NCBI GenBank assembly: GCA_963758495.1
Contig: CAVWVI010000004.1
Location: forward strand, 128,001 to 192,000
Length of the DNA: 64,000 nt
From: Oligoflexia bacterium
GTDB taxonomy: Bacteria; Bdellovibrionota; UBA1018
Direction of reading: 5' to 3'
Shown: piece by piece, positions 23,904 to 45,451 of the stretch
Layout: each line of letters opens with the position of its first letter
Position numbering within the stretch: the stretch's first letter is position 1
Translations under genes and position numbers: made by a program
The notes under the pieces: generated by a model
What the model was told of the DNA's origin: nothing
What the model saw: the letters and a program-made list of their open reading frames with translations, nothing else
Databases searched by the model: none

Positions 23904-26174
23904 CTAATTTTGTCTTTCAAAATAGCTTAAACCTGCTGATGGTTTAAACATTGTTCGCGGAGCACCAGATGGGTCTCTAACTACAAAAATATTACTTTCT
24001 GGATGATAAAATACTGTAGCACCATCCTGTGACTTAACTTTAGTGAGAGTACCTGGTGGTGGATCCTTTATGAACCGGTGAGCTTCTTCAACATATTCAA
24101 GAGCGTTATTAATATTCTGAAAATCTCTCTTATGATCTTTCCAATGCCGAAAAGCATTCTTTACAGGATCTTTAAACCGCCCATCAGTCCATATTCCCGG
24201 TTCCTTTATATTTATTATAGCACCGGAAATATCTACATCTACTAATCCAATTTCATTCCTAACAATATTAAAAAAATTACTTAGCTCATCTTTACCTTGG
24301 CCTAAAACTGCCCCCGCCGCATCCAAAACAGGAACCACTTGATCCACCGTCAATTTCGATAGCCCCGTACCTAAACCAGCTTGCTCGACGCCCGAAGCTT
24401 CCTCTATCATAATTCCAGCAACGGTTTGTGCTCTCTCCAGGGCTAAGCCTTCTTGACCTTTTCCTGTTACCCTACTCATTTGAGTTAGTATTTCTTCTCC
24501 CACCACAGCCGCCAGCTCCGTGTCCACGTAAGACTTTGCCATGAGTATCAGAGCTTGATTGATCGGCGCCTCAACAGGACCCATGATAAGAGCTAGAATG
24601 GCTTCAGGCACCAAAAGTCCTAACGCCCTCCCTCTTTCTTCTGCGGTTACATTTCCTACGAGCCCGGTAGCGATTCCCAGTTTTTCTCCAACTTCGACGA
24701 AACCTTTTGCCAGTTTTTTGAAGAATTCCTTATCTGTCACGCTATAAAGAATATGATTAGGAATACATCTTACAATGGTTGGATCTGACGCGAGAAGGTC
24801 TACTGCTCGATAGATTCCCATTCCAACTTCCGTGAGTCCGTACATCACTCCTAAGCTGTAAGAATAGACCGCCTTGACTTGAGCCAGTCCAAACTCTGCC
24901 AACAATTCAATCTCCCACTGATCAGGACGTTTCTCTTGAGAAGCTTTGGCGGCAAGCTCCACTGTTTCCTCTCCACGAGTCAATTCTTCTCTTAATGAAT
25001 GAACCTGCTCTGCCGTAAGTTTCTCCGATAAAATAGGGTGGTCTAAACTCTCTCTCGCCAACTGCGCCAGATCATGAGTCTCTACTTCAATTTGATGAAT
25101 TCCCTCTCTAAATTTTTTCAATAACGGTGTTTCTGTCACATCCGGTAGCGGTGCTAATTCATTTAGCTTAAGGTCTATCTTTTCAAAACGAATTGCACGA
25201 AGGTCTTCTAGTCCTTTCTTTAACAGACTTTTGATATTTGCGTCTGTTTTTACGAGATTGGCTTCCGCCTTCTCCCGATGTTTTCTCAGACTTTCTAAAT
25301 ATCCATTCACTCTCTGACTGCGCTCTGCTAACTTCTGCTCAACCCTGGCCTTCTCTGCATGATGATATCCGGCCTCAATTCCAGCAAAATCGACTACCTG
25401 AGGCTGTGGTCTCATCATATGAGACTGCATCAAAGAAGGCGCCGAATCAGTGACACGAGTGGGATCAAAAAGGGTTCGATTTTGATTCAGTATCTGATGA
25501 GCATCATGATGTTGTGCAACAGATGGAACTTGCAGATTTGAATGTAATACAGCTTGATAAGGAGGGGGCGGCGGCAGTACCGTTGAACGTGCTGCTGGAT
25601 TTGGATTTAAATGAGGATGACTCCTGGAGGTTGGAGCGTTCGTACTAGTAGATGGTAAATCAATCGGGGTTCGCAAATCAATTGCATACTTTTGCAAAAA
25701 AGCCTCCGATTGCTGGCGAATCTCTTTCATCACATCTTCTGGCTTTCTACACCCTCCTGAAGAATTACAATCTAATGATGAAATAAAATCAAGGATATTA
25801 TACGATGCTAATTCTGCCCCAATATCCGCATTATTTTGCCGAAGCTGCTGTCCTTGCCCTTGAAAATAACCACTAGAGTTATGTGCAGCACTTATAGAAG
25901 CTTGAAAGCTATGTTGCTCAGAAACACTTTTGTAGGTTTCAATTACGTTTTGACTTGAATTCACCTCAATCTCAGGAGCTTGAGCAAGAGGATTTGCAGT
26001 AGCGTTCTCTTTAAACTCATAGTTTCTAAAAGTGGCCTGACTCTTTTGATAGACTCCTTCTGCAGTAAGAGTGGACTCTTGATGAAAGGAAAGATCTACA
26101 GGCATGGCACTTGCTGTACGAATGCCTAATAATAAAGAAATACTACAAAGATAAAAACCATGGCGGAAATTCAT
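23904..26174 (-). CDS. Secreted polymorphic toxin with C-terminal CdiA-CT-like putative RNase domain
   Basis: Signal peptide; C-terminus WT...NAFRHWKDHKRDF...EYVEEAHRF...PPPGTLTK...YHPESNIF...GAPRTMFKP resembles toxin tips of CdiA/Rhs proteins; CPCC gene follows. Confidence 0.75.
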   Translation of the reverse strand: MNFRHGFYLCSISLLLGIRTASAMPVDLSFHQESTLTAEGVYQKSQATFRNYEFKENATANPLAQAPEIEVNSSQNVIETYKSVSEQHSFQASISAAHNSSGYFQGQGQQLRQNNADIGAELASYNILDFISSLDCNSSGGCRKPEDVMKEIRQQSEAFLQKYAIDLRTPIDLPSTSTNAPTSRSHPHLNPNPAARSTVLPPPPPYQAVLHSNLQVPSVAQHHDAHQILNQNRTLFDPTRVTDSAPSLMQSHMMRPQPQVVDFAGIEAGYHHAEKARVEQKLAERSQRVNGYLESLRKHREKAEANLVKTDANIKSLLKKGLEDLRAIRFEKIDLKLNELAPLPDVTETPLLKKFREGIHQIEVETHDLAQLARESLDHPILSEKLTAEQVHSLREELTRGEETVELAAKASQEKRPDQWEIELLAEFGLAQVKAVYSYSLGVMYGLTEVGMGIYRAVDLLASDPTIVRCIPNHILYSVTDKEFFKKLAKGFVEVGEKLGIATGLVGNVTAEERGRALGLLVPEAILALIMGPVEAPINQALILMAKSYVDTELAAVVGEEILTQMSRVTGKGQEGLALERAQTVAGIMIEEASGVEQAGLGTGLSKLTVDQVVPVLDAAGAVLGQGKDELSNFFNIVRNEIGLVDVDISGAIINIKEPGIWTDGRFKDPVKNAFRHWKDHKRDFQNINNALEYVEEAHRFIKDPPPGTLTKVKSQDGATVFYHPESNIFVVRDPSGAPRTMFKPSAGLSYFERQN

Positions 26175-26221
26175 AAAAATACTCTTAGTTTTAATTCTAA
26201 ACTTTTTTAATCCTACTTCAC

Positions 26222-27106
26222 TTATTCAAAAGAGATTTGTTCATAAAACTTCAATCCTTCACGAGTAAGATGATCTAAATCATTCTCCACTCTCATCTTG
26301 ATTGCCTGAGAAAGTCTGACAGTCATAGAGGGTACCACTTCTTTCTTAAGCTCCTGAATTGAAGGTAATGCGCTTGAACTAAATTGAGCCCTGATTCCTA
26401 AAATTTTTGAATAGATCTGCCAAAGACCACGCACAGCAGGAGAAACTTCTTCATATCGATTCGCAACAGCATAGACCCGAAGAATAGATTTGGCGTCTGA
26501 ACTCCGCTTCACAACTGCACTTAAAATTTTTGCATCGTCTAGGGAGGACTTAGTTTTAAAGCCATCTTTTTTAAGATGGATTCCACACACAAGGCCATCT
26601 GATAATGAATTCCATCTTTCTGATTCTAACTTCTTTCGAGCCAATTCTGCATTCATAATTAAATTATTAGAAGACAGAGGTTGAGCCGTCTTTACTGTCT
26701 CGGCAATTTGGTCTTCATATCGAATCAAATCTTTTAAAATAGGCAATGATCGCCGACTGCACTCTACAAATTTAGCTAAATTTTCAGAAGTCGAATGAAG
26801 ACCTGGACTGACCGCAGGCTCATGAACGACTTTATTTTTTTCAGGTGACAAACTCTCTCTCCTTAACACCTCAGAAGAAGCATTCTCATCGCTAGAAGAA
26901 GTCGTCGTAGCGACGGTGGAATGGGGAATAAAATGACCTATTGGAATACCTTCGACTAGGTAAGAGACCGTTTCACCTGGAATATACTGGCTTTCTTTCA
27001 GTTCATATTTTCCATGAGTCAATAGAACTGGATCAGCAAGTACTAAGGTAGTCAAACTTAACATCATCAAAACACATAAAGCTAAAGAACACCGAAATTT
27101 CATCAA
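26222..27106 (-). CDS. Secreted hypothetical protein
   Basis: Signal peptide, 294 aa, GAGGTG RBS, in toxin operon. Confidence 0.7.
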   Translation of the reverse strand: MMKFRCSLALCVLMMLSLTTLVLADPVLLTHGKYELKESQYIPGETVSYLVEGIPIGHFIPHSTVATTTSSSDENASSEVLRRESLSPEKNKVVHEPAVSPGLHSTSENLAKFVECSRRSLPILKDLIRYEDQIAETVKTAQPLSSNNLIMNAELARKKLESERWNSLSDGLVCGIHLKKDGFKTKSSLDDAKILSAVVKRSSDAKSILRVYAVANRYEEVSPAVRGLWQIYSKILGIRAQFSSSALPSIQELKKEVVPSMTVRLSQAIKMRVENDLDHLTREGLKFYEQISFE

Positions 27107-27119
27107 TCACCTCAAACGA

Positions 27120-28526
27120 TTAGTCAGAAAGAACATTCGCAATTTCATTTGCGAAAAAGCTCCAATGATCCGTCTTCAAACTGGTTTTCATAAATCGAAA
27201 TTCTGAATTTACACTTGGCTCTTTTTGAGAATAATAGGCATCCCCAATAATCGACTGAGTCCAAAGTTCATCTTTTAATTTTAATAATTCTTGAAAATGC
27301 AGCAACTTTCCTTCATCAAGGTTTCCAAAATAAGGAAGAACTCTATCCTTAAAAAAAGATACAGATTGATCACAATATTTTTCAAAATTACAATAATACC
27401 TATCTATTGATTTAAGGTAATTTCCATTAATTTTATTAAAAAAATTACGTTCAATTTCTAAAAAATGATCTCTATAACTCTTTTCGGCATTTGATATTTC
27501 ATTTTTATAAAGCTGCCGAAGGTCAAAAAGGTGTTTCTTTATTTCACTTGCTATAGCCACTCTCTCGTTCAGTTGACTTTCTAAATCTAAAAAACTCGGA
27601 TCAATCATTTGCTTTTTACAAAGCTCTAAAATGCTACGCTCAGCATTCACATCGAGATGACTCACCGCCTTTTCCTGTGCCAGCCAATATTGCTGAGAAA
27701 GATCATACTGTTCGTTTAAATCCTTAACATAACTAGCCATATCCAAACTTGTCCAAACACTAGCTACAATTAGAGCGCCAACAGCACCTACAGCCCCTCC
27801 AACCGCTGCAGCGGAAGTCACCGAACTCAGCGCAGAACCTGCCGCCGCATTTCCAATCATTGCACCCCCTGCTGTCATGCAGGACCCAACAATATATTTC
27901 GGATCATTACTTCCACACCCAGATTGACATGAGACCTGTGAAATCGACTGACTTCCAGTATTAACTTCGGCATTCATATAAACAATAGGCTTACAGGATT
28001 CAACAGCATGCTCCATAACTGGAAAAAATAAAACTTTGGGCTCATATTGCTTTTTAATACTTTTCACTTTTTCTACGGAACAAAAGTGACTATGACCCTG
28101 TTTCAATTTTTCAAAATCAGAGTAAACTTTTTTCACGGTTTCGATTTCTCGCCCCAAGGCTGACTCAGCCAAAATCACCTGAGTCAGGGTTTCATTAAAA
28201 TCTTTTGAATAGGTAGCTAACTTAGACCGAGTAGAGTCCAAACCTGCTCGAAAGGAACTCAAAATACCTTCCGTCAGTTTCAGTCGGTTAGCAGAAAACT
28301 TTGACAACTCCACGTAGTCATGGAGCAACATCTGAAAATGATCTGAAATTGCCATATCATAAGACTTCTGGATTGTTTTTGGGAAGTCTTCGTTTAAACT
28401 TTGCAACTGTTTTCTTAACTCTTCTACTCCTCCTGCGAGGATCGGTGAGACTGGAAGGAAAAAAAAGATTATGAAAAGAAGTGACTTTAACCGGGTCACA
28501 CTTTCAAAAGCGATCACTTTCTTCAT
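27120..28526 (-). CDS. Secreted helical protein with central Gly/Ala hydrophobic hairpin (alpha-pore-forming-toxin-like topology)
   Basis: Signal peptide; AGGAMIGNAAAGSALSSVTSAAAVGGAVGAVGALIVASVW flanked by heptad-rich helices. Confidence 0.6.
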   Translation of the reverse strand: MKKVIAFESVTRLKSLLFIIFFFLPVSPILAGGVEELRKQLQSLNEDFPKTIQKSYDMAISDHFQMLLHDYVELSKFSANRLKLTEGILSSFRAGLDSTRSKLATYSKDFNETLTQVILAESALGREIETVKKVYSDFEKLKQGHSHFCSVEKVKSIKKQYEPKVLFFPVMEHAVESCKPIVYMNAEVNTGSQSISQVSCQSGCGSNDPKYIVGSCMTAGGAMIGNAAAGSALSSVTSAAAVGGAVGAVGALIVASVWTSLDMASYVKDLNEQYDLSQQYWLAQEKAVSHLDVNAERSILELCKKQMIDPSFLDLESQLNERVAIASEIKKHLFDLRQLYKNEISNAEKSYRDHFLEIERNFFNKINGNYLKSIDRYYCNFEKYCDQSVSFFKDRVLPYFGNLDEGKLLHFQELLKLKDELWTQSIIGDAYYSQKEPSVNSEFRFMKTSLKTDHWSFFANEIANVLSD

Positions 28527-29713
28527 AAATTTGCTTCATTTCTATTTTTAATTTTTTCTAAAATAGAGTCATGCAAAAGAATAGCTTCATAAATATTAAC
28601 TTCTTTAACATCTCGTTCTTTTCTCATTTTTCTCAGCGTTTTAATATCAGCGATAACGTCATAGGGTGGATTATAAATATTAAAAAGAGTGGTTGATATA
28701 GGTCCCCAAGCCCCAGCATCCAAAAAAAACTCTGCTTCATGAATATAATCAGCTATCAAAGCACAGCCAGCTAAAAGTGGAGACTGAGTATTTTCAAGAT
28801 GTTCCCAATCAGAACATCGGTCTTTATAAGTAAGAATATTTTGATACATTTCATACCGAGCCTTAAGGGGAATTCCAGGCTTTTTTTCTACTTCTTGATG
28901 TTGAGCACGAGCAAAAGTTAGATTTAATTGATGAATCACCTCACCTACTTCTTCTACAAAACGAAGACTTTCATTATTGAGTCGCTTCTTTTCATCATAT
29001 TCTCTTTCCCATTCTTTGAATTCCTTCTCAAGAATACGATCCATACTTTTAGTAATCAGTTGAAACTGATCCTCAATTTCTGCTTGAACCTTGGCATTAA
29101 GAGCTTTGATTTCATCTACCATCAAATTAAGCTGATTCAGCACAGTCTGATTTAATCCTTTGAGATTTCTATTCTTTACAAACAAATCCGACACTTCATG
29201 AACACCCCTCTCAAACTCAATTTTAATTTGTGCTTGAGAAAAGTATAGCTTTTCAATTTTAAATTTTGATTGAATCAAATCTTCAGAAGTAACCGCTTCT
29301 TCTATTTTCTGAGCATGTGCTAGCACTTGTTTCCGCACCCTAGGATGAGCTACCAACAAATCTTCAAACCGATTCGTGAGTGTAGCTACACGCTTCTCCA
29401 AGTCATTTTGAATGCTATTTTCTTCTTCACTATTGTCATGGCCTAAATCAGCCTTCTTTTCTATCGACTCCGACTTCAATCTAATAGGGTTGACGGTAGC
29501 ATTTTCTTTGCACTCATCATTTCTAGACGTCCCATGACTCTTTTGATTATCTCCTGCTCGAGAATCGCTAGATTCTACAATCTGATCTATTTTGGCCGGC
29601 TCATGCTCTTCATCAGATCCAGACATAGGAGAAGTTGATTTTCCACAAGAAATAGAAATTATCCCAAAACAAATTATTATTACAAGTCTTGTAATAATAT
29701 CATTAGACTTCAT
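28523..29713 (-). CDS. Lipoprotein whose C-terminal ~300 aa duplicates the end of the upstream gene
   Basis: Lipobox ISISC; ATGA overlaps with both neighbours. Confidence 0.75.
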   Translation of the reverse strand: MKSNDIITRLVIIICFGIISISCGKSTSPMSGSDEEHEPAKIDQIVESSDSRAGDNQKSHGTSRNDECKENATVNPIRLKSESIEKKADLGHDNSEEENSIQNDLEKRVATLTNRFEDLLVAHPRVRKQVLAHAQKIEEAVTSEDLIQSKFKIEKLYFSQAQIKIEFERGVHEVSDLFVKNRNLKGLNQTVLNQLNLMVDEIKALNAKVQAEIEDQFQLITKSMDRILEKEFKEWEREYDEKKRLNNESLRFVEEVGEVIHQLNLTFARAQHQEVEKKPGIPLKARYEMYQNILTYKDRCSDWEHLENTQSPLLAGCALIADYIHEAEFFLDAGAWGPISTTLFNIYNPPYDVIADIKTLRKMRKERDVKEVNIYEAILLHDSILEKIKNRNEANL

Positions 29714-32376
29714 AAACTAGCTTCTCTTTCTTTTTTAATTTTTTCTAAAATAGAGTCGTGTAGAAGAATCGCTTCATAAATACCGACTTCTTTAGTTTCT
29801 CGTTCTTTTCTCATTTTTCTCAGCACTTTAATGTCAGCAATCACATCGTTGGGCGGATTATAAATATTAAAAAGCGTAACTGACATAGGCCCCCAAGCCC
29901 CAGCATTCAAAAAAAATTCTGCTTCCTTAATGTAATCACCTATCAATGTACAGCCAGCTAAAAGTGGGGACTGAATATTTTCAAGATGTTTCAAATCAGA
30001 ACATTGGTCTTTGTAAGTAAGAATATTTTGATAAATCTCATAACGAGATTTAAGAGGATCTCCTGGTTTATTGCTCATTTCTTGACGCTGAATGGTATCA
30101 AAATTTAATTGATAAATCACTTCACCTACTTCATCGACAAAACGAAGACTCTCAATATTCTGTCGCTTCTTTTCATCGTATTTTTTTTCCCATTCCTTGA
30201 ATTGATTCGAAAGAATTCGATCCAAACTTTTGGAGATCAAGGAAAACTGACCTTCGATTTCCAATTGAACCTTAGAGTAATGACTTTTGATTTCCTCGAT
30301 TATCAGATTAAGCTTAGTGGGCACAGTCTGATTCAATCCCTTGAGGTTTCTATACTCTAAAAATAAATCCGACACTTCATGGGCACCCCTCTCAAACTCC
30401 ATTTTGATTTGTGCTTGAGAAAAGTAGAGTTTTTCAAATTTAAATTTTGATTGAATCAAATCTTTAATACTCACAGCTTCTTCTATTTTTTGAACATGTA
30501 CTGCGACTTGTTTCTGCGCCACAGGATGAGCGGTCAACAAATCAGCGAATCGCTCCATAAGTGCGTCTAACCGCTCTTGTAAATCCTTTTGAGTACTCTC
30601 TTCTTCTTCGGTAGCTTGAAACCCTGTATCTAACTTCACTTGAATGGGTTCTGACTTTAATCCAGGAGGAGCGACAGATTTAATTTCCGAGGTTAGAATC
30701 AGTTTAGAATCTATTTGCTGCGGATCACTTAAATCCACGTCACCATTACAAAGAGGAATTTCGAAATAGCTGCTCACATGAGCACTTAATTGAGGAAAGA
30801 GTTCTAACTTTGCGCGATTATATTCGACACAACGAAGAATGGCCTGTTCAAGTTCGTGACGAATGATTTTATTTATCTGATCATGTACCTGACTTTGAAG
30901 CTGCATCCACAGAGGCTTAGCCTCCGAAACATTCTTTATTTTTAAAACTTTTTCAATCAGCTCTGTAAGTATTGACAAATACTGTCTAGTTTTTGCCAAA
31001 ATGGTAACATCCAAGTCAGAATTCATCACATGCTGGGTTAATTTTCGTGTATTCAGCTCCCAGGAATCACGAATCAATTGCCGTAAACCCTCCTGAAGCT
31101 GAAATACTCTTTCTGATTGATGCCCAGAAGTTCCGATATTGAGTTGCTCAGTAGAATGAATGCGAGAAATTGACTCTTCGAAAAAAAACTTAAGGCTCCG
31201 TACAAAGCTAAAAGCAAACCACGACTCATGAACTTTTCTTCGCTCATTTTCCAGTAACTGAAATGAAATAAGAATTCCATTCTCAATCTGCTCCAGTTGA
31301 TTCTTAGAATGCTTTGTGTAAACAGAAAAGAATGGATCATCGTGCGATCGATTTAAACCTACCTCACCTAAGTCACCTTTACCTAGATTGCCTGGATCTG
31401 ATAAATCCTGAACACCCATTGGGCCATTAGAAATCTCCATATGATTCCATAAGAGACTAGCGGCATCACCCTTACCTCCTACACCTCCCCGACCCGGATC
31501 TCCTTTTAATCCAGGCTTACCCCCCTGACCTCCTAAACCTGGAAAAGAGTGCAAATGCCTTTTATCTAATTCTTTTAGCGACTGATTAGTCAAAAACACA
31601 AAAGGAATTGCACAGCCACCTTTTCCTCCTGTGCCGCCCTTTCCACCTCGACCCCCACGCCCTCCAGCACCTCCTCTACCCGCTGTACTAGTTGACCCAT
31701 TATAGGTCGCATGAGCTGGGCCACCCGGACCGCCATCACCGCCAGCACCCCCTTTTCCTCCAGTTCCTCCTACGCCACCGGATTGACCTTCGCAGATGAT
31801 CTTAGGTGTTCCCAAAACTTGTGCTGCAAAAAAGTAGATTGGCTTCGGATTTTTTTCACCATTCATCCCACAGTAGCCAGTTTCCCCATCATTTCCCGCA
31901 CCTCCCGCTACTCCATCATTACCAATCGAAGTGAGTTCATGATTCTTTATACCTAAAGGATGGACTCTTAAAGGAGTTGGAAGATTACTTTCCGTAGTCA
32001 ATGCAGCGACAGAAGGACTTTGTTCTTGCGCAGGCGCACAAAAACTATAGCCTTGGATAGAGCCCTTCTCTGTAAAAATGACCTGCCGAGCTTCAACAAT
32101 CAATTGATATCCATGAGTGAATATGGGTCCATCAATCACGATTTGATCTGCTCGAATCACTTCGTCATTTTTAAGTACAAAGGAATGGGGTCCTAGTGTG
32201 ATTTTATTTCCATAAATCAATAAAGACTGATTCAATAAATCCGACTCAACTTTAAAAGGATCGAAATCGGTATCTACTTCATCGCCTGAATGAGCACGAC
32301 CCCCCAGAAATAATAGGCTCGTCATGATCAACAGCGGCGCTATCCGAGAAAATTTTTTAAATAAATATTTTTTCAT
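29710..32376 (-). CDS. Large secreted protein with Gly-rich (collagen/PGRS-like) segments and coiled-coil C-terminus
   Basis: Probable start MKKYLFKK with signal peptide; GGxGGxG repeats; C-terminal domain shared with next gene. Confidence 0.75.
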   Translation of the reverse strand: MKKYLFKKFSRIAPLLIMTSLLFLGGRAHSGDEVDTDFDPFKVESDLLNQSLLIYGNKITLGPHSFVLKNDEVIRADQIVIDGPIFTHGYQLIVEARQVIFTEKGSIQGYSFCAPAQEQSPSVAALTTESNLPTPLRVHPLGIKNHELTSIGNDGVAGGAGNDGETGYCGMNGEKNPKPIYFFAAQVLGTPKIICEGQSGGVGGTGGKGGAGGDGGPGGPAHATYNGSTSTAGRGGAGGRGGRGGKGGTGGKGGCAIPFVFLTNQSLKELDKRHLHSFPGLGGQGGKPGLKGDPGRGGVGGKGDAASLLWNHMEISNGPMGVQDLSDPGNLGKGDLGEVGLNRSHDDPFFSVYTKHSKNQLEQIENGILISFQLLENERRKVHESWFAFSFVRSLKFFFEESISRIHSTEQLNIGTSGHQSERVFQLQEGLRQLIRDSWELNTRKLTQHVMNSDLDVTILAKTRQYLSILTELIEKVLKIKNVSEAKPLWMQLQSQVHDQINKIIRHELEQAILRCVEYNRAKLELFPQLSAHVSSYFEIPLCNGDVDLSDPQQIDSKLILTSEIKSVAPPGLKSEPIQVKLDTGFQATEEEESTQKDLQERLDALMERFADLLTAHPVAQKQVAVHVQKIEEAVSIKDLIQSKFKFEKLYFSQAQIKMEFERGAHEVSDLFLEYRNLKGLNQTVPTKLNLIIEEIKSHYSKVQLEIEGQFSLISKSLDRILSNQFKEWEKKYDEKKRQNIESLRFVDEVGEVIYQLNFDTIQRQEMSNKPGDPLKSRYEIYQNILTYKDQCSDLKHLENIQSPLLAGCTLIGDYIKEAEFFLNAGAWGPMSVTLFNIYNPPNDVIADIKVLRKMRKERETKEVGIYEAILLHDSILEKIKKEREASL

Positions 32377-32398
32377 AAAAATACAAATCTTGAACGAC

Positions 32399-33541
32399 TT
32401 ACAAATTGGCCCTAGCGTTAATTCTCGCAAGTATGCCTCCAGCATCGTTGATCTCTTCATCTAAAATATTCTGTAATTCTTCTTCCAGAATTAATTTTTC
32501 CCTGGCAACATCATAAAAATCCTTCAATGCTTCCTTTGCCAAGACGTATTGACTGAGCATCTGCGCATATTGCTGCTTAGCTTCGGCTACTCGCTCTTTT
32601 TTTACTCTCTCTGCAATTTTCTTTACGGTCTCATCTATTGCCTTAAATGGTCCAGACCTAAAAAACTCTAAAAATCTATTTTTCGGTTGAGCAGACTGCC
32701 TTTGTTTTTCTAATAAAATACTTTCTAAAATGTCCCCCATGAGATCCTTGACGTCTTCACCAAACAATCCCGTATCATCGTCAACAATAGCCTTGATTCT
32801 GTCCGTATCGAATCCACTTAATCCGGAAGTATAAGAAAATAACTTATCTGAGCTGGACTTAATTAATCCATAATCTGACTTTATTGCATCCAATGATTCT
32901 AACAGTTTGTATTGATCTTTCAGTTTGGTGAGCTTTATTTTCAAATCTCTTCGCACCTTAACCGCGTCTTTTTTTGACTTCACTGCTAACACATTTAAAC
33001 TAACGCTAAAACTGATCCTACAATTTCTATCAAACTGCCCATCAGAAAAAGAAAGCCTGTTGATCGGCTCAATTTTTACTGTTCCAATTGCTTCATTTTC
33101 AGGCAAATAGATAATCTTTCGCACATCATTTAAATAATCCATACCCTCATACTTAATAAATTTTCCATGTACCGAATCAATCTCAAGTCTCAATAAGGAC
33201 GAACTACCTACACGCTTACTTTTTCCACATGAATCTGATCTTTTAAACTTAATTTCAGTCTGAAATGGAAGAAATGGAAGTAAGTTTCTATTTTCTCCTA
33301 TTTCGATTAAATCCAATTTACATTGACCCATTTTTCCAGAGTGCAGTACTCCACAGTTATCTTGAGAAACCAAGGTATAATCATTTATGATAGGCCTAAT
33401 GACTTCCGAAGCAGACCCTGAAGCTGACTCAACAACAGTAGAAGCCTGAGTAGATGACTCCGAAGGTGCCGCTTGGGTGCTCTGAGAAAGTAAAAAAACA
33501 CCCATTGAAATTTTTGCAATTAATACAACAAAAGTATTCAT
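32399..33541 (-). CDS. Secreted hypothetical protein, beta-rich N-terminus and coiled-coil C-terminus
   Basis: Signal peptide ending TQA; 380 aa. Confidence 0.7.
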   Translation of the reverse strand: MNTFVVLIAKISMGVFLLSQSTQAAPSESSTQASTVVESASGSASEVIRPIINDYTLVSQDNCGVLHSGKMGQCKLDLIEIGENRNLLPFLPFQTEIKFKRSDSCGKSKRVGSSSLLRLEIDSVHGKFIKYEGMDYLNDVRKIIYLPENEAIGTVKIEPINRLSFSDGQFDRNCRISFSVSLNVLAVKSKKDAVKVRRDLKIKLTKLKDQYKLLESLDAIKSDYGLIKSSSDKLFSYTSGLSGFDTDRIKAIVDDDTGLFGEDVKDLMGDILESILLEKQRQSAQPKNRFLEFFRSGPFKAIDETVKKIAERVKKERVAEAKQQYAQMLSQYVLAKEALKDFYDVAREKLILEEELQNILDEEINDAGGILARINARANL

Positions 33542-33579
33542 ATAATTATATTTTTTATTAATGATGTTATTTTTAAGAA

Positions 33580-34302
33580 TTATTTCTTTGCACTTCTGGC
33601 ATTCAGTTTAGCTTCTATCGCATTATCAATATAAGCATCTAAAACTTTGAGCAGTGCCTTGTTCTTTATTAAAGCATTGGGTAGATCTTTTATTTCATCC
33701 ATAATGGCATTAATTTTTTTGGTTTGTTTATTTTTAGGTGTGAGATTTACCTTGATATAAGTATTAACAATAACACAACGCGGTCGCGTCTCTGCTCCAC
33801 CTGTAGGATCGATGAGAAACCAATGAGCATTTCGACCGGTATTCTCACCCCAACAAGGGCGATTACAGTGAATTGCGCTGTGACCTGATCCTTTATCATT
33901 GGCTACGGTAAAACGATCTGAGTCATGAGTATGGGATTTTAATAAATCCTGTTGGTAATTACCTACACATAGATTTCCTTCAGGATTACCGCGTTCGGCA
34001 CTTTGATCCCAATTAGAACTTCTAAGAAATACTCCCCTTGAATCTGGAAGAGGCCCTGTCCAAAGCTTTTCACTCATCAGGGCATCATCATCTTTTAATT
34101 TCTGGCCATTCATCAATACCCATCCATCACCGTAAATTCTCTGAAATGCATCTGGTGCAAGAATAGATTGGCGGATTTCACCTAAATTTCCAGTATCTCT
34201 TTCTGGAATAGCGTGGGCGGTAAGTGCCATTAAAAATATGAGTAAACCTAAATACATCTGTTTTTGAATTTTAAAAATCACTTCAAACTCCGTAATAAAC
34301 AA
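33580..34302 (-). CDS. Secreted protein with phage tail-collar/tail-fibre-like domain
   Basis: GWVLMNGQ...LPDSRGVFLR...GNYQQDLLKSHTH...GGAETRPRCVIVNTYIKV; signal peptide ending AHA. Confidence 0.7.
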   Translation of the reverse strand: MFITEFEVIFKIQKQMYLGLLIFLMALTAHAIPERDTGNLGEIRQSILAPDAFQRIYGDGWVLMNGQKLKDDDALMSEKLWTGPLPDSRGVFLRSSNWDQSAERGNPEGNLCVGNYQQDLLKSHTHDSDRFTVANDKGSGHSAIHCNRPCWGENTGRNAHWFLIDPTGGAETRPRCVIVNTYIKVNLTPKNKQTKKINAIMDEIKDLPNALIKNKALLKVLDAYIDNAIEAKLNARSAKK

Positions 34303-40324: not shown

Positions 40325-40402
40325 CTATCCATGAGTCTTTACCTGAGTGATCTACACGGGTCAATTACATTTCAGAGTTCAGAATTCGGGAGGCTGGATT
40401 CG

Positions 40403-40536
40403 GGGATCAGGTTCCTGGGATCAGGTTCCTGGAATCAGGTTCCTGGAATCAGGTACCCGGAATCAGGTACCCGGAATCAGGTACCCGGAATCAGGTTCCT
40501 GGAATCAGGTTCCTGGAATCAGGTTCCTGGAATCAG
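40403..40536 (+). repeat. 14-bp tandem repeat GGAATCAGGTTCCT, 9 full units plus a partial unit
   Basis: Counted directly; variants GGGATCAGGTTCCT (x2) and GGAATCAGGTACCC (x3). Confidence 0.95.
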
Positions 40537-40704
40537 CATTCTGAATCCTGCATCCCGGAGTCCCGGAATGACCGACTCCAGAAGATCTGCCTTACCCCTA
40601 TTTCCTGGAATTAGAGGTAAGGCTCCATCGCTCCTTTCTTTTTTCGAGAAACAGCCCCGTTGTCACTTGAGGGCTGTTCCTCAAAAATTCGAAAGGAGCT
40701 TATC
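40534..40704 (+). ncRNA. Candidate structured leader RNA of the four-helix-bundle gene
   Basis: Stems GCCTTACC/GGTAAGGC, AACAGCCC/GGGCTGTT and GCTCCTTTC/GAAAGGAGC (covers the RBS); only 3 differences from the second copy. Confidence 0.5.
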
Positions 40705-41010
40705 ATGGTCCATAATCAATTCAGGAGTTATCAGGTTGCCGTACAAGTCTTCAAAGAGTGTCGGTCACTCCAACTTCCATCGTATCTCAAGGATCAGTGT
40801 CTTCGTGCCGCATCCAGCGTTGTTCTCAACCTTGCAGAGGGTTCAGGCAAGGATTCCCCAGCTGATCGTAGACGCTTCTACCAGATCGCAATGGGTAGCA
40901 CTCGCGAAGTGCAAGCTATTTTAGATCTTGCTGATCGAGTTCCTGCTTCTCTCCGTGATCAAGCTGATCACCTCGGTGCTTGTGTCTACAAGCTCTGCCG
41001 GGCGCTCTAG
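40705..41010 (+). CDS. Four-helix-bundle protein (23S rRNA IVS protein / bAvd-like)
   Basis: F.SYQ.A...LKDQCLRAASSVVLNLAEGSGK....RRRFYQIAMGSTREV; ATG after AAGGAG. Confidence 0.9.
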   Translation: MVHNQFRSYQVAVQVFKECRSLQLPSYLKDQCLRAASSVVLNLAEGSGKDSPADRRRFYQIAMGSTREVQAILDLADRVPASLRDQADHLGACVYKLCRAL

Positions 41011-41025
41011 TTATTTTTCTATTCA

Positions 41026-41057
41026 TTCTCTCTTGAGAGTAAGTTCTCAAGAGAGAA
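41026..41057. terminator. 13-bp hairpin at the 3' end of the left module
   Basis: TTCTCTCTTGAGA-GTAAGT-TCTCAAGAGAGAA. Confidence 0.6.
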
Positions 41058-41128
41058 TTAGATTTTCTTTTATTGGAGTTGATCACGTCATTAATTAATA
41101 GGTTTCGTAAGGATAAATTATCCTCCAT

Positions 41129-41593
41129 TTAAAAATAAAATTTAATCCCTAAATTAAAACCAACCCCTCGTGCTAAATAACTCCAAAATGGTAGTGAGTA
41201 ACCCACCTCTGAAGACATTACAAAATGTCGAGAATCGTTTATCGCATATTCAGTTCCAATGGCATAATTTAAGCCAAGAATATTTGAACTCTCAAATACA
41301 ATAAAGGCACTAGACTTAAAATATGCAGCAAAGGAGGAAAAATCTATAAGTCTAGACATGGTTCCTAAAGTAAACATTGAATAAGCGGTACTTCCTTCAG
41401 GTGAAGGAAGTAATTCAGAAAATTGCGCAAACATAGAGATATGATTACGATCTGACAAAGGAGAATTTATTCCTACGGTGTAGCCGACTTCTGAATTAAT
41501 GGCACTAGGTCCAGCCATTAAAGAGAAAGTAGATGGAACTGAAGCCATACAGGTCGTAGAAAATATTAAACACAAAAATAAAATTTTTTTCAT
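41129..41593 (-). CDS. Small outer-membrane beta-barrel-like protein
   Basis: Signal peptide, alternating beta pattern, C-terminal GFNLGIKFYF beta-signal. Confidence 0.65.
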   Translation of the reverse strand: MKKILFLCLIFSTTCMASVPSTFSLMAGPSAINSEVGYTVGINSPLSDRNHISMFAQFSELLPSPEGSTAYSMFTLGTMSRLIDFSSFAAYFKSSAFIVFESSNILGLNYAIGTEYAINDSRHFVMSSEVGYSLPFWSYLARGVGFNLGIKFYF

Positions 41594-41644
41594 AAAATTT
41601 CTATTAAACTTGAGGTTAGTTTTTATCTAGCCTCAAACATAAAA

Positions 41645-41926
41645 CTATCCAATTGATTTTAGAATCTCTTCTAATATCTGTACTAACGTGTCCTTTGTTG
41701 TAGTAACGCACTCACTTTCTCCACCCACTGACCACACTGAAACTTTGATCATTCCATCTTTTATGGGGGGATCAATACCAATTCGCTTTTCTCCTACACT
41801 GAAAATCCGCAATTGATAATCTTTAAATTCCTTTAAGAATTGTAAATTACTATGCCTTCTTGCGAACGTTTCAATCTCATGATCAATATCTTCAAATAAG
41901 TTTTTTTCTTCTGGCCAATCACTCAT
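41645..41926 (-). CDS. Probable immunity protein
   Basis: MSDWPEEK start after GGAGGTG, overlaps toxin stop; small, no signal peptide. Confidence 0.65.
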   Translation of the reverse strand: MSDWPEEKNLFEDIDHEIETFARRHSNLQFLKEFKDYQLRIFSVGEKRIGIDPPIKDGMIKVSVWSVGGESECVTTTKDTLVQILEEILKSIG

Positions 41927-43253
41927 AAAACACCTCCGGTAATTGTCTCGTATTTTTAAAATTTGAAGCATCAATGGACTTCTCTAGTCTGTATTGAATT
42001 GCACCGCTAGGAGCTTCAAGTGGCATTTCAGTAAAATCATTATGAAATTGCACACTCCCTCTACTCATGGGGGTTCCCGATGGAACATGCACATCTGAAA
42101 TAAGAGTTGGAGTTTTTGGTAGTGCATATTTAATTCGGATTCGTTCTGGAGTTAGTCCTTGAATCGAACTCTTCTTCATAACCCAAGCTTTAACCTTATT
42201 TTCTTCACAATGAACTCTTACCCATTTCGTCTTTTTCACGGTATCGAAGAAAACAACATAGGATCCATGTTCATAAGGCGGCAGATAAGTACCAGGTCCT
42301 TGTGTGAATGCAGCATTAACCTGCGTGGCCTCTCGAATGGAGGTTATGCGATGGCTTTTCTTCCAATCATTTAACAAATGTCCAGCGTGACCAATTAACC
42401 GCTCACCCTCACGTATCGCAATTTCAGCAGCATGCTTATCGGCTATCATGTGCGATGCACGTTGGAAAACCTTAGCCATACCACGTGTTGCCTGGACCAT
42501 GGATCGACCACCACCCGCAGTAACCGCTCCAACGAAGGCAAGGCTTCTTTCAACTAAGGAAAGCTGTAATCCAGTAACTAAGTTCTTCCCTGAGAATAAT
42601 TCATAAGTACTTCGGGCAAATCCAGATACGGGATCAAGACCAACCGCGATATCAAGAAACCCCTTAGCTAGTTCTTTATAAAAATTTGCATCCTCTCCGG
42701 CTCCACGTGAAGAAGACAGATCCGCCTCTTCTACTGAGATTAAACCAAACTCACGTGCCTGTTTTCGGTTTTCATAGTAGGGGTTAATTTTATAGAGGTC
42801 TGTATATATACGTTTTAATTCTTCCTTAATAACACCTTCATTTGCTGTAAACTTGTACGGAAGCTCTAGAGGGTCCGAAATAGAATTAACGTCGATATGC
42901 GGATTGGGCGCTTTTTCTAGCAAATCTTGAGTGAGTCGATTGAGCATATCGTCCACTGATTCTTCAACGGAAAAAGAGTGAATACTTTTCGATAGTTGAA
43001 TGGAAGCTTCAACTACCGCTCTCTTCTGTTCAAGTGCAAGTGCCTCACGTTTTGATGCCTCTGCCTGGTTGCGAATTCCTGAATAATCTATAGGTGCAGC
43101 AGGATGAAACACAGAATTCATATTAGAGGAGCCAATTGAATTACTTACCATTGGACCACCTCCTTCACCACCTATAGTCGTGTGAACATTAAAGCCATCA
43201 GTAGCGTAAACAGAACTAGAGAGTAACGACAATAAAACACTAATTAATCTCAT
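41919..43253 (-). CDS. Secreted polymorphic toxin with pre-toxin TG-like domain and C-terminal toxin domain
   Basis: Signal peptide; LDIAVGLDPVSGFARSTYELFSGKNLVTG..LS..ER (PT-TG-like); tip WVRVH...W.M...IQGLTPERI..KYALP..PT...V.VP.GT.M..G...GAIQY. Confidence 0.75.
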   Translation of the reverse strand: MRLISVLLSLLSSSVYATDGFNVHTTIGGEGGGPMVSNSIGSSNMNSVFHPAAPIDYSGIRNQAEASKREALALEQKRAVVEASIQLSKSIHSFSVEESVDDMLNRLTQDLLEKAPNPHIDVNSISDPLELPYKFTANEGVIKEELKRIYTDLYKINPYYENRKQAREFGLISVEEADLSSSRGAGEDANFYKELAKGFLDIAVGLDPVSGFARSTYELFSGKNLVTGLQLSLVERSLAFVGAVTAGGGRSMVQATRGMAKVFQRASHMIADKHAAEIAIREGERLIGHAGHLLNDWKKSHRITSIREATQVNAAFTQGPGTYLPPYEHGSYVVFFDTVKKTKWVRVHCEENKVKAWVMKKSSIQGLTPERIRIKYALPKTPTLISDVHVPSGTPMSRGSVQFHNDFTEMPLEAPSGAIQYRLEKSIDASNFKNTRQLPEVFYE

Positions 43254-43797
43254 GTTTGCGCTCCTCTGTTAATTTCTCTAGCTCAGCAGCAAGGTCTGTT
43301 TTCATTCTCTGAACTGTGTGTCTCAGGTCTGATTGAACTAAGGGATCTCTTAAGTTAAGACCCTGCTGCATATAGTTCTGCATTAGGTTACGCACATCAG
43401 CTGTATGTCTATCTTTAGCTTCATTTTCGAGGTGATCAAAACGAAAATTGACCTGCTCAACTCTCGTACGCTCAGCCTCAGCGGAGGCTAAATTTGCTTG
43501 TTGTCTTTGAAGTTCAGCAGCCTGTTGCGAGGCATAGTTACGTTCGCAATCAGCCAGATTTTTCTCCTTTTCCTGCCATATCCTATGTTGATTGTGAGCA
43601 ACTAATCCTGGAAATACTCCAAAAACCCCACCCCATCCACCAGTTGCAATGCCCCCGTACGTAGCTATACCTGTGGAAATGCCACTAAAAGTTAAACATA
43701 AGTTTCTAAACTTATCCCTTTCTTCTCTCTCTTTCTCACAAATTGCAAAGGCACTTGCACTATATGACAGCAACAATAAAACTATAATTTTCTTCAT
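43240..43797 (-). CDS. Secreted coiled-coil protein with Gly-rich hydrophobic segment
   Basis: Signal peptide ending AFA; LTFSGISTGIATYGGIATGGWGGVFGVFPGLVA. Confidence 0.7.
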   Translation of the reverse strand: MKKIIVLLLLSYSASAFAICEKEREERDKFRNLCLTFSGISTGIATYGGIATGGWGGVFGVFPGLVAHNQHRIWQEKEKNLADCERNYASQQAAELQRQQANLASAEAERTRVEQVNFRFDHLENEAKDRHTADVRNLMQNYMQQGLNLRDPLVQSDLRHTVQRMKTDLAAELEKLTEERKHEIN

Positions 43798-43799
43798 GA

Positions 43800-44327
43800 T
43801 TATTTGCGCCCAGTTAAATTATTAATTTCTTCCTGGGTCCATCCCCGAACATCACGAAGGAAAGTGATAGCTTCCTGATTATTGGGATCAAGCATAATAA
43901 CCATCGTGGCCCAATACTCTTTAAGAATTGGGTCCTGCTCCTGGTTCATAGCATTAAGAATTTCGTCAAGTGTCTCAACTCGATTTCTTGCTTCTTCTTC
44001 ACGTCTTTTCTGCTCAAACTCTCTACGCCTTTGAGCATCCCGGGTGACTTTCTCTTCCCATTCCCGCCTAGCTTTATCATTGGCTTCTCTAGCCTGCTGA
44101 CGTTCCCATTCTGCTTTCTCAATAATACTTCGTTCTAGCTCAAGCCTTCTTTGCTCTAAAATATGCCTTGCTTTATGCTCTTCTACTTCTACTTTCCTTC
44201 TATTACTCTCTACATCCATACGAACTTGTCGTTCACGTTGCTCTCTCATAGGGTCATGAGACATTCCACTTCCATTATTACCAGCTAAGGCGCTAGATGT
44301 TAATAATGTTAATAAAATGATATACAT
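43800..44327 (-). CDS. Secreted charged coiled-coil protein
   Basis: AGGAG RBS, signal peptide ending ALA, E/R-rich helix. Confidence 0.7.
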   Translation of the reverse strand: MYIILLTLLTSSALAGNNGSGMSHDPMREQRERQVRMDVESNRRKVEVEEHKARHILEQRRLELERSIIEKAEWERQQAREANDKARREWEEKVTRDAQRRREFEQKRREEEARNRVETLDEILNAMNQEQDPILKEYWATMVIMLDPNNQEAITFLRDVRGWTQEEINNLTGRK

Positions 44328-44691
44328 TTGTACTCCTAATGAATCCCTAATTCCTTAACTTCTAAAAAAATATTTTTAATCTTTTATTATAGAGTTATAT
44401 AGAATTCAATAATATTTATAAATATTTATAATAACGACAATACAGCCGTACAATTGTTATGATTGACTCTCAATTTGAGAAGCAAGATTTTATAATCCCT
44501 CATATCACTTTCATTTTTTAGCAATAATCGTGAGAAATTTACGATTCGCCTTTCACGGTACTCTGAGATATGGTTTTAAATATTATTAGGAAAATTGGAT
44601 TTTCAAATATAGTTAAAAGCATTCTTCTTTTTAACTTTGCTCTCAAAGACAGAATTCCCTGAGTGTTAGGATTTGCTAATTAACGCAATAC

Positions 44692-44724
44692 TTCTCTCCT
44701 GAGAGATTTGTTCTCAAGAGAGAA
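44692..44724. terminator. 13-bp hairpin at the 3' end of the right module
   Basis: TTCTCTCCTGAGA-GATTTGT-TCTCAAGAGAGAA; same stem as left copy (one G-U on the coding strand), different loop. Confidence 0.6.
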
Positions 44725-44739
44725 TGAATAGAAAAATAA

Positions 44740-45045
44740 CTAGAGCGCCCGACAGAGCTTATAGACACAAGCACCAAGGTGATCAGCTTGATCACGGAGA
44801 GAAGCAGGAACTCGATCAGCAAGATCTAAAATAGCTTGTACTTCGCGAGTGCTGCCCATTGCGATCTGGTAGAAGCGTCTACGATCAGCCGGAGAATCCT
44901 TACCAGAACCCTCCGCAAGGTTGAGAACCACGCTGGATGCGGCACGAAGACACTGATCCTTGAGATACGATGGAAGTTGGAGTGACCGACACTCTTTGAA
45001 TACTTGTACTCCAACCTGATAACTCCTGAATTGATTATGGACCAT
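44740..45045 (-). CDS. Four-helix-bundle protein (23S rRNA IVS protein / bAvd-like), second copy
   Basis: Identical to 40705..41010 protein except one A-to-G change. Confidence 0.9.
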   Translation of the reverse strand: MVHNQFRSYQVGVQVFKECRSLQLPSYLKDQCLRAASSVVLNLAEGSGKDSPADRRRFYQIAMGSTREVQAILDLADRVPASLRDQADHLGACVYKLCRAL

Positions 45046-45229
45046 GATAAGCTCCTTTCGAATTTTTGAGGAACAGCCCTCAAGTGACAACGGGGCTGTT
45101 TCTCGAAAAAAGAAAGGAGCGATGGGGCCATACCTCTAATTCCAGGAAATAGGGGTAAGGCAGATCTTCTGGGGTCGGTCATTCCGGGACTCCGGGATGC
45201 AGGATTCAGAATGCTGGGCTCAGGTTCCA

Positions 45230-45425
45230 AGGAACCTGATTCCAGGAACCTGATCCCAGGAACCTGATTCCAGGAACCTGATTCCAGGAACCTGATTCCA
45301 GGAACCTGATTCCAGGAACCTGATCCCAGGAACCTGATTCCAGGAACCTGATTCCAGGAACCTGATTCCAGGAACCTGATTCCAGGAACCTGATTCCAGG
45401 AACCTGATTCCAGGAACCTGATTCC
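45230..45425 (-). repeat. 14-bp tandem repeat GGAATCAGGTTCCT, 14 units
   Basis: AGGAACCTGATTCC on + strand, 196 bp = 14 units, two are GATCCC variants. Confidence 0.95.
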
Positions 45426-45451
45426 CGAATCCAGCCTCAAGCTCTATTTTG

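Follow-up and report, generated by a model that had tools for sequence, protein, structure and literature searches.

In a 64,000-nt stretch of the genome of an Oligoflexia bacterium (hereafter the window; contig CAVWVI010000004.1), two nearly identical modules of about 0.7 kb face inward around a toxin operon. Each carries an array of paired heptamers and the gene for a four-helix-bundle protein of the kind encoded by intervening sequences (IVSs) of 23S rRNA. On balance, we lean toward the reading that this 5-kb stretch is a composite, cargo-loaded, inward-facing form of a heptamer-armed IVS-protein cassette, moved by an enzyme acting in trans. The evidence lies in the design of the pair itself, in inward pairs that enclose other cargo at three additional loci of this module clade, and in the boundaries of one of them. 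The window genome (3.66 Mb) is called G000 below, its relatives are numbered G0xx, and the fetched loci are numbered Lxxx.

The inward-facing modules of the window

The modules occupy positions 40390-41057 (plus strand, 668 nt) and 44692-45438 (minus strand, 747 nt). They have a common outer start (40390 and 45438), the same terminal hairpin marks their inner ends, and their arms are 97% complementary across 505 nt with a spacing of 3,673 nt. Each is built, in order, of a 14-bp array, a leader, a hairpin covering the ribosome-binding site (RBS), an open reading frame (ORF) of 101 amino acids that matches PF05635 (61 bits; cut-off, 33.8) and TIGR02436 (64 bits; cut-off, 24), and the terminal hairpin. 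The coordinates thus bear out the first-pass annotation, made by a model from the letters of the window, which had described two near-identical inward modules with IVS-type four-helix-bundle ORFs. The parts are as follows.

40390..40559, plus strand: left outer arm, a single long hairpin consisting of a cap, the 14-bp array (40406-40536, 9.4 units) and a closing strand
40560..40629, plus strand: left leader, with a decayed antisense copy of the 5' part of the ORF
40630..40699, plus strand: left hairpin pairing with the RBS, the same in both copies and covarying in relatives
40705..41010, plus strand: left four-helix-bundle ORF, 101 amino acids, PF05635/TIGR02436
41026..41057, plus strand: left terminal hairpin, terminator-like, the inner end of the shared sequence
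44692..44724, minus strand: right terminal hairpin
44740..45045, minus strand: right four-helix-bundle ORF, 101 amino acids, one residue unlike the left copy
45051..45120, minus strand: right RBS hairpin
45121..45438, minus strand: right leader and outer arm, array 45225-45425 (14.3 units), beginning 13 nt past the kinase stop codon

Since the 14-bp unit consists of two near-complementary heptamers, the left arm pairs with itself (z of -5.8, with none of 100 shuffles equally stable). The PF05635 protein is the only conserved ORF of the modules, which encode no transposase; the arrays are also traversed by frames of 203 and 204 amino acids, which were discounted as genes, the overlapping frame having 12 residue changes in 125 codons and behaving as noncoding. 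As the first-pass annotation had remarked, transposase and recombinase families are missing from the surroundings (zero matches among the 12 neighboring proteins scanned), and the unit as a whole is not bounded by a target duplication, the best matches being equaled by 45 to 94% of random site pairs. Only two intact copies of the module exist in G000. Two randomly placed copies would face inward within 5 kb with a chance of about 0.07%, a figure that overstates the surprise, since the window was chosen for the pair.

The two copies differ at 17 of 474 positions, nearly all of them synonymous changes inside the ORF, and their arrays are unequal in length. Because the ORFs and leaders differ in this way, a collapsed repeat is ruled out, and the pair is real. 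Long inverted repeats do break assemblies (the L155 contig ends within its second copy), but the same design recurs in independent assemblies, and a repeat falsely duplicated during assembly, the artefact that the first-pass annotation wished to see checked, is extremely improbable. The 13 synonymous and 1 nonsynonymous differences between the ORFs (synonymous divergence [dS], 0.21; nonsynonymous divergence [dN], 0.004), together with 3 differences in 168 leader positions, show purifying selection on both ORFs and both leaders.

Among five copies of the closest clade, 6 of the 28 pairs of the RBS hairpin have changed on both sides, one pair occurring in four forms. In two other sets of copies (L002/L020 and L074/L076/L078), the arms of the RBS palindrome likewise covary, indels included, between copies within one genome. 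The leader also holds the decayed start of an antisense ORF (local score of 69 versus a maximum of 63 in 200 shuffles), and the same is seen in L153 and L155; the one-gene modules of this clade therefore descend from a back-to-back twin form.

The longest identical tract between the window copies (114 nt, 40625-40738) takes in the RBS hairpin together with codons 1 to 11. The L155 contig breaks in its second copy (L155:8882) at the very point where this tract ends, codon 11, and the coincidence hints at homogenization centered on the RBS hairpin. Arm-to-arm exchange could also account for such a tract if crossing over between the arms inverted the toxin operon as a form of phase variation, and 0.5-kb arms at 96 to 97% identity could recombine through RecA. 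Against an invertible cassette stands the lack of a linked recombinase: none was found among the 12 neighbors, the nearest tyrosine recombinase on the contig is about 65 kb off, and ten PF00589 matches lie elsewhere in G000, where serine recombinases were not searched for genome-wide. Moreover, the cargo is preceded by an AT-rich region of its own and closed at each end by a terminator-like hairpin, so inversion would be expected to have little effect, and the other pairs of the clade are decayed and enclose unrelated cargo. We therefore regard such a switch as improbable.

Inward pairs at other loci and their insertion boundaries

Inward pairs occur at four loci of the clade (the window, G000 C3, G053 C8 and L155), with four different cargoes. 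On C3 of G000 (229879-231098), a decayed opposite-strand pair encloses an MNT-HEPN gene pair within 1,220 nt; its second member was found by searching for a partner after a single deleted remnant had been spotted. In G053 C8, a decayed module and, inverted to it, the remnant of a leader together span 2,690 nt, with genes of 264 and 299 amino acids in between. The metagenome locus L155 has two near-identical ORFs, 96% alike and about 300 nt apart, the contig ending inside the second copy. All three of these further assessable pairs thus face inward, which would happen in about 1.6% of cases if the four orientations were equally likely; the L153 and L154 contigs end 0 and about 0.45 kb past the module and are too short to judge pairing. 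Taken together, the four loci support the inward pair as a recurrent unit with interchangeable cargo, and the decayed pairs show that cargo is left behind. The truncated second module of G053 C8 borders directly on a 100-bp repeat (L234:10380-10495), which is present about 40 times in G053 and 3 times in G055.

The 5' end of the module is defined, as five copies from three sources begin at the same short motif. A search pattern derived from these very copies matched 2 of 401 genomes, with one match on each strand per genome and 0 control matches; given this derivation, the informative part is solely that no solitary extra copies turned up. Profile (nhmmer) and DNA searches of G000 revealed no further module pieces beyond one weak match (E of 0.085) devoid of module features, and profile and DNA searches of G053 revealed none.

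The C3 pair offers the clearest view of a boundary. In 11 of 29 relatives, no more than about 100 nt separate an FHA-GGDEF gene from mutL; the others comprise 2 with other inserts, 1 with an inverted arrangement, and 15 without the FHA gene in the fetched DNA. In G000, the pair starts 2 nt past the FHA stop codon and ends before the mutL upstream region. Because it fills a junction that is empty in these 11 relatives, its outer ends appear, by comparison of the loci, to be the ends of the inserted DNA. This junction is a hot spot that has received four different inserts (G000 C3:229876-231153 and the orthologous loci L289, L302 and L309). The window unit has a similar position: 13 nt separate it from the kinase stop codon on one side and 65 nt from mnmC2 on the other. 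The first-pass annotation had proposed a composite-like unit that moves or flips the toxin locus; recurrence of the pair at three further loci and the match of the C3 ends to an insertion speak for its composite half, while the moving or flipping of the toxin locus as such finds no support, its cassette standing free of modules elsewhere and a recombinase not being linked to it.

The toxin operon and its module-free relatives

The cargo of the window consists of five minus-strand ORFs of 175, 185, 444, 93 and 154 amino acids, and its GC content (0.38) lies at the 5th percentile among G000 stretches of equal length. Its genes are listed below.

41129..41593, minus strand: 154-amino-acid protein, outer-membrane-barrel-like by eye, without a Pfam match; homologues end other toxin cassettes
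41645..41926, minus strand: 93-amino-acid candidate immunity protein, by position only
41919..43253, minus strand: 444-amino-acid polymorphic toxin with PT-TG and a predicted C-terminal NAD glycohydrolase fold like that of Tne2, Tse6 and Rhs1-CT
43240..43797, minus strand: 185-amino-acid protein whose start resembles a signal peptide; its homologues (53% in G053) stand ahead of other toxins
43800..44327, minus strand: 175-amino-acid charged, coiled-coil-like protein with a signal-peptide-like start

The 444-amino-acid protein combines a pre-toxin domain (PT-TG, PF14449, 29.6 bits; cut-off, 23.5) with a predicted NADase-like fold at its C terminus and is, on these grounds, a predicted polymorphic toxin. 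In a wide structural search, the model of its C-terminal part (mean predicted local distance difference test [pLDDT] score, 86) matched Tne2 (Z of 10.4, root mean square deviation of 2.3, 105 residues aligned), Rhs1-CT (Z of 9.3) and Tse6 (Z of 7.7). These are described, in part of PMC10539506, as antibacterial NAD(P) glycohydrolases. The cargo toxin resembles them in its predicted C-terminal fold and in the small gene downstream; it differs in having about 10% sequence identity to them and a PT-TG domain with a signal-peptide-like N terminus instead of PAAR or Rhs regions. A sequence search of the PDB with the toxin returned no useful match, and Foldseek with the C-terminal model gave zero matches at an E value of ≤0.001. 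A first guess, that the toxin is TreTu-like, was dropped, as TreTu was absent among the matches listed in the structural search. For the 93-amino-acid protein, no family was assigned, and the ESM Atlas matches were unnamed clusters under 0.9; its candidacy as an immunity protein comes from its position and from two look-alike genes (24 to 25% identity) behind other toxins. The five co-oriented genes and the toxin reported at first pass are thus present as described, and the immunity half of the claimed toxin-immunity pair is a matter of position and two weak look-alikes.

The cassette does not depend on the modules. Three paralogues (41 to 48%) stand module-free elsewhere in G000, and G053 has the same five-gene order, again free of modules, beside a type IV coupling-protein gene; cargo without modules in a relative is one of the outcomes that the first-pass annotation had named as refuting its reading. 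In other genomes, a module gene lay within 1.5 kb of 0 of 16 toxin loci and of 0 of 8 extended loci. In the composite reading, the toxin operon would be one passenger, independent of the route by which the pair travels, and the tie between pair and operon is loose. These module-free cassettes also speak against domestication of the modules as insulators or regulators, in which the hairpins would terminate transcription at the operon ends or the protein would regulate the operon, mobility having been lost. The strong purifying selection and the closure of both cargo ends by terminator-like hairpins would fit such a role; the selection may, on the other hand, date from life as a mobile element, and the other pairs decay. 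We judge domestication to be unlikely.

The principal alternative to a composite unit, which we hold to be possible and the less probable of the two, is a series of local events: a module inserts, a second copy arises by a short hop or by hairpin-driven inverted copying, and accessory DNA arrives separately at a permissive junction without ever traveling with the arms. Several observations favor it and weigh against the composite reading. Single and multiple copies of the module are common in the order, 40 of its 116 genomes carrying the gene with up to 14 matches per genome, and copies cluster locally around ordinary genes (L064 and L067). At dS 0.21, the window copies are not a fresh duplication. 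Three clade remnants for which no partner was seen occur in G084; a contig end is less than 0.9 kb away from two of them, and the third is a solitary hairpin with no gene. Comparisons for target duplications (11 tests in all) gave a 7/9 match for the C3 pair, reached by 1.1% of random pairs in exact register and by about 5% with slack, and a 5/9 match for the G053 pair (null of 22%); the left window module alone has a weak flanking direct repeat (2.5%), which would fit a separate insertion. Both the cargo and the C3 junction are met elsewhere without modules: inserts without modules fill the FHA-mutL junction in G053 (2.2 kb), G082 (759 nt) and G089 (481 nt), and the same cargo was not found with a pair at two sites.

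The window junction adds to these difficulties. An empty kinase-mnmC2 site, which the first-pass annotation had suggested looking for alongside the copies and ends of the module, was recovered at 0 of the 16 best orthologous loci, where synteny is lost because the neighbors of mnmC2 are not conserved; in G053, the gene preceding mnmC2 is another one, whose G000 counterpart sits on a separate contig. G053 also has a regulator-kinase pair (37% identity to that of the window) followed by small AT-rich ORFs without modules. By eye these resemble pieces of a secreted-toxin cassette, and they show no significant likeness to the window cargo; the position after the regulator-kinase pair may therefore attract such DNA anyway. 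Last, an enzyme linked to the pair is lacking.

Three points set the series of local events back: the uniformly inward orientation of the three further pairs, the absence of lone copies from the searches of G000 and G053, and the coincidence of the outer ends of the C3 pair with an insertion boundary. Integration of the cargo at a duplicated hairpin was considered as well and is unsupported, the inner hairpins of the window modules being about equally alike as direct and inverted repeats (scores of 23 and 21).

Further PT-TG toxin cassettes of G000 lie at C4:1071024-1073292, C3:1638993-1642211 and C1:88577-91026. These three paralogue cassettes adjoin, by eye, a toxin-antitoxin-like pair, a tRNA-like stretch and an IS630-like element; the C4 copy has one in-frame stop, and the C3 copy is accompanied by orphan immunity-like genes. 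A second co-oriented operon of the window (23904-34302) encodes secreted-looking proteins, the last of 756 amino acids with a toxin-like tail (by eye), and one of its ORFs (396 amino acids) repeats the C-terminal part of another (916 amino acids) at 81 to 85%; modules do not flank it.

A possible mechanism, known systems and the wider module family

In the composite reading that we favor, the pair and the DNA it encloses would be one inserted unit. Each module of the clade has the outer arm only; the second copy would supply the missing one, and the pair would repeat the arm-loop-arm design at a larger scale. The arms would probably pair into a long stem and the cargo loop out, the intermediate being single-stranded DNA or RNA. 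By likeness to Avd, an accessory protein of diversity-generating retroelements (DGRs), the module protein would probably be a chaperone that binds the heptamer hairpins and not the catalyst, the cutting or copying enzyme being supplied in trans. G000 holds five reverse transcriptases, one Y1 transposase and ten tyrosine-recombinase (PF00589) matches, and no linkage of any of these to the modules was seen.

A close precedent is the IVS of 23S rRNA. Parts of PMC4990558 describe, for Coxiella burnetii, an S23p IVS with a PF05635-family ORF, tandem heptamers upstream of the start codon and stem-forming repeats, and cite the idea that the ORF serves mobility; ORF-bearing IVSs also occur among the rRNA insertions of the Candidate Phyla Radiation, according to 10.1101/2024.02.27.582315. 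The window modules share the family, the heptamers before the start codon and the association of the gene with stem-forming repeats. They differ in lying between protein genes (mnmC2-like and kinase) and not in rRNA, an Rfam search of L001 and L019 having found no rRNA, and in their RBS-sequestering hairpin, their ORFs under purifying selection and their inward arrangement around kilobases of cargo. The IVS trait of an ORF between complementary ends is missing from a single window module, which has no downstream arm; the whole pair does have inverted ends, and the related form in G079 is two-armed.

Composite transposons of the Tn5/Tn10 type consist of two insertion sequence (IS) copies around cargo. 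The window pair is like them in its two near-identical inverted modules around interchangeable accessory genes and in outer ends that, at one locus, equal the insertion boundary; it is unlike them in lacking a module transposase and a clear target duplication, in its heptamer-hairpin arms, and in that its mobility is inferred.

As regards DGRs, part of PMC10053308 notes the resemblance of PF05635 to Avd, with 2GSC compared against 4DWL. The module protein matches 2GSC (Xcc0516) at an E value of 1.9e-4 and, belonging to a related fold family, may bind nucleic acid by analogy. The locus differs from a DGR in that none of the five reverse transcriptases of G000 is near, the closest on the contig being about 143 kb away, and no template-variable repeat pair is present at the locus. 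The element therefore stands outside the rRNA IVSs, IS-based composite transposons, recombinase switches and DGRs and works most like a composite transposon; in the literature covered (mostly open papers, without supplements), we found no description of these intergenic pairs.

We would go further only tentatively, to a class of transposase-less composite elements in which two one-armed, Avd-like cassettes fold the intervening DNA or RNA into a stem-loop that a host or trans-acting enzyme inserts at gene junctions, ferrying genes for toxins, antitoxins and secreted proteins in Bdellovibrionota; rRNA IVSs, heptamer-armed singles, back-to-back twins and cargo carriers would then be forms of one system. 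If the pair does move as a unit, it would give bacterial conflict genes a new way to spread in which no transposase is encoded. A direct assay of mobility is possible in this clade, where one end of the element is defined, the RBS hairpin covaries, two near-identical ORFs are under selection, the target junction exists in empty form and the cargo is interchangeable.

The named relatives nearest to the module protein are mostly from Bdellovibrionota, and the RBS-covering hairpin precedes the ORF in the loci inspected. Searches of viral contigs returned neither a relative of the protein nor the end motif, and a plasmid search returned one distant record. Among 101 tabulated loci, some of them fetched twice, 34 hold back-to-back twins, 5 inward pairs and 1 a tandem pair; 9 of 80 metagenome loci have inward-facing copies. 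A quick tree, in which many forks are open, places the window pair, L153 and the L155 pair on one branch (support of 94), with the two-armed G079 copy as sister. In the G079 form, a single gene lies between inverted heptamer arms that are 86 to 96% alike; the window modules, L153, L154 and G053 instead have a terminator-like hairpin after the ORF and no downstream heptamer arm, and L155 has a short hairpin there.

Inward twins separated by little DNA are found in other clades (L157, which is the same locus as L040, L158, L172, L178 and L219), and in one further clade a single such twin, with almost no cargo, occurs at two loci of one genome (L094 and L096, 93% over 1,130 nt). These twins count toward the composite reading, as does the contrast with many-copy, two-armed genomes, whose close pairs surround ordinary genes in all orientations (L064 inward, L067 tandem and L235 outward). 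Other inward pairs enclose a 157-codon frame (L189:815-1420), an AT-rich filler of 0.2 kb (L036:6295-6500) and a 47-codon frame (L155:8305-8612), spacers that could possibly represent intermediate cargo sizes. Copies in G035 are flanked by repeats of 6 to 7 nt that differ from site to site, and in G065 (C1:63667-64642) a four-helix-bundle gene and a distant mnmC-like paralogue are arranged tail to tail. In L154 (1-2024), a group II intron (RF02005; reverse transcriptase, PF00078) follows directly after the 5' stem-loop of the module and splits the end motif, so this reverse transcriptase beside an Avd-like gene looks like a case of intron targeting and not a DGR.

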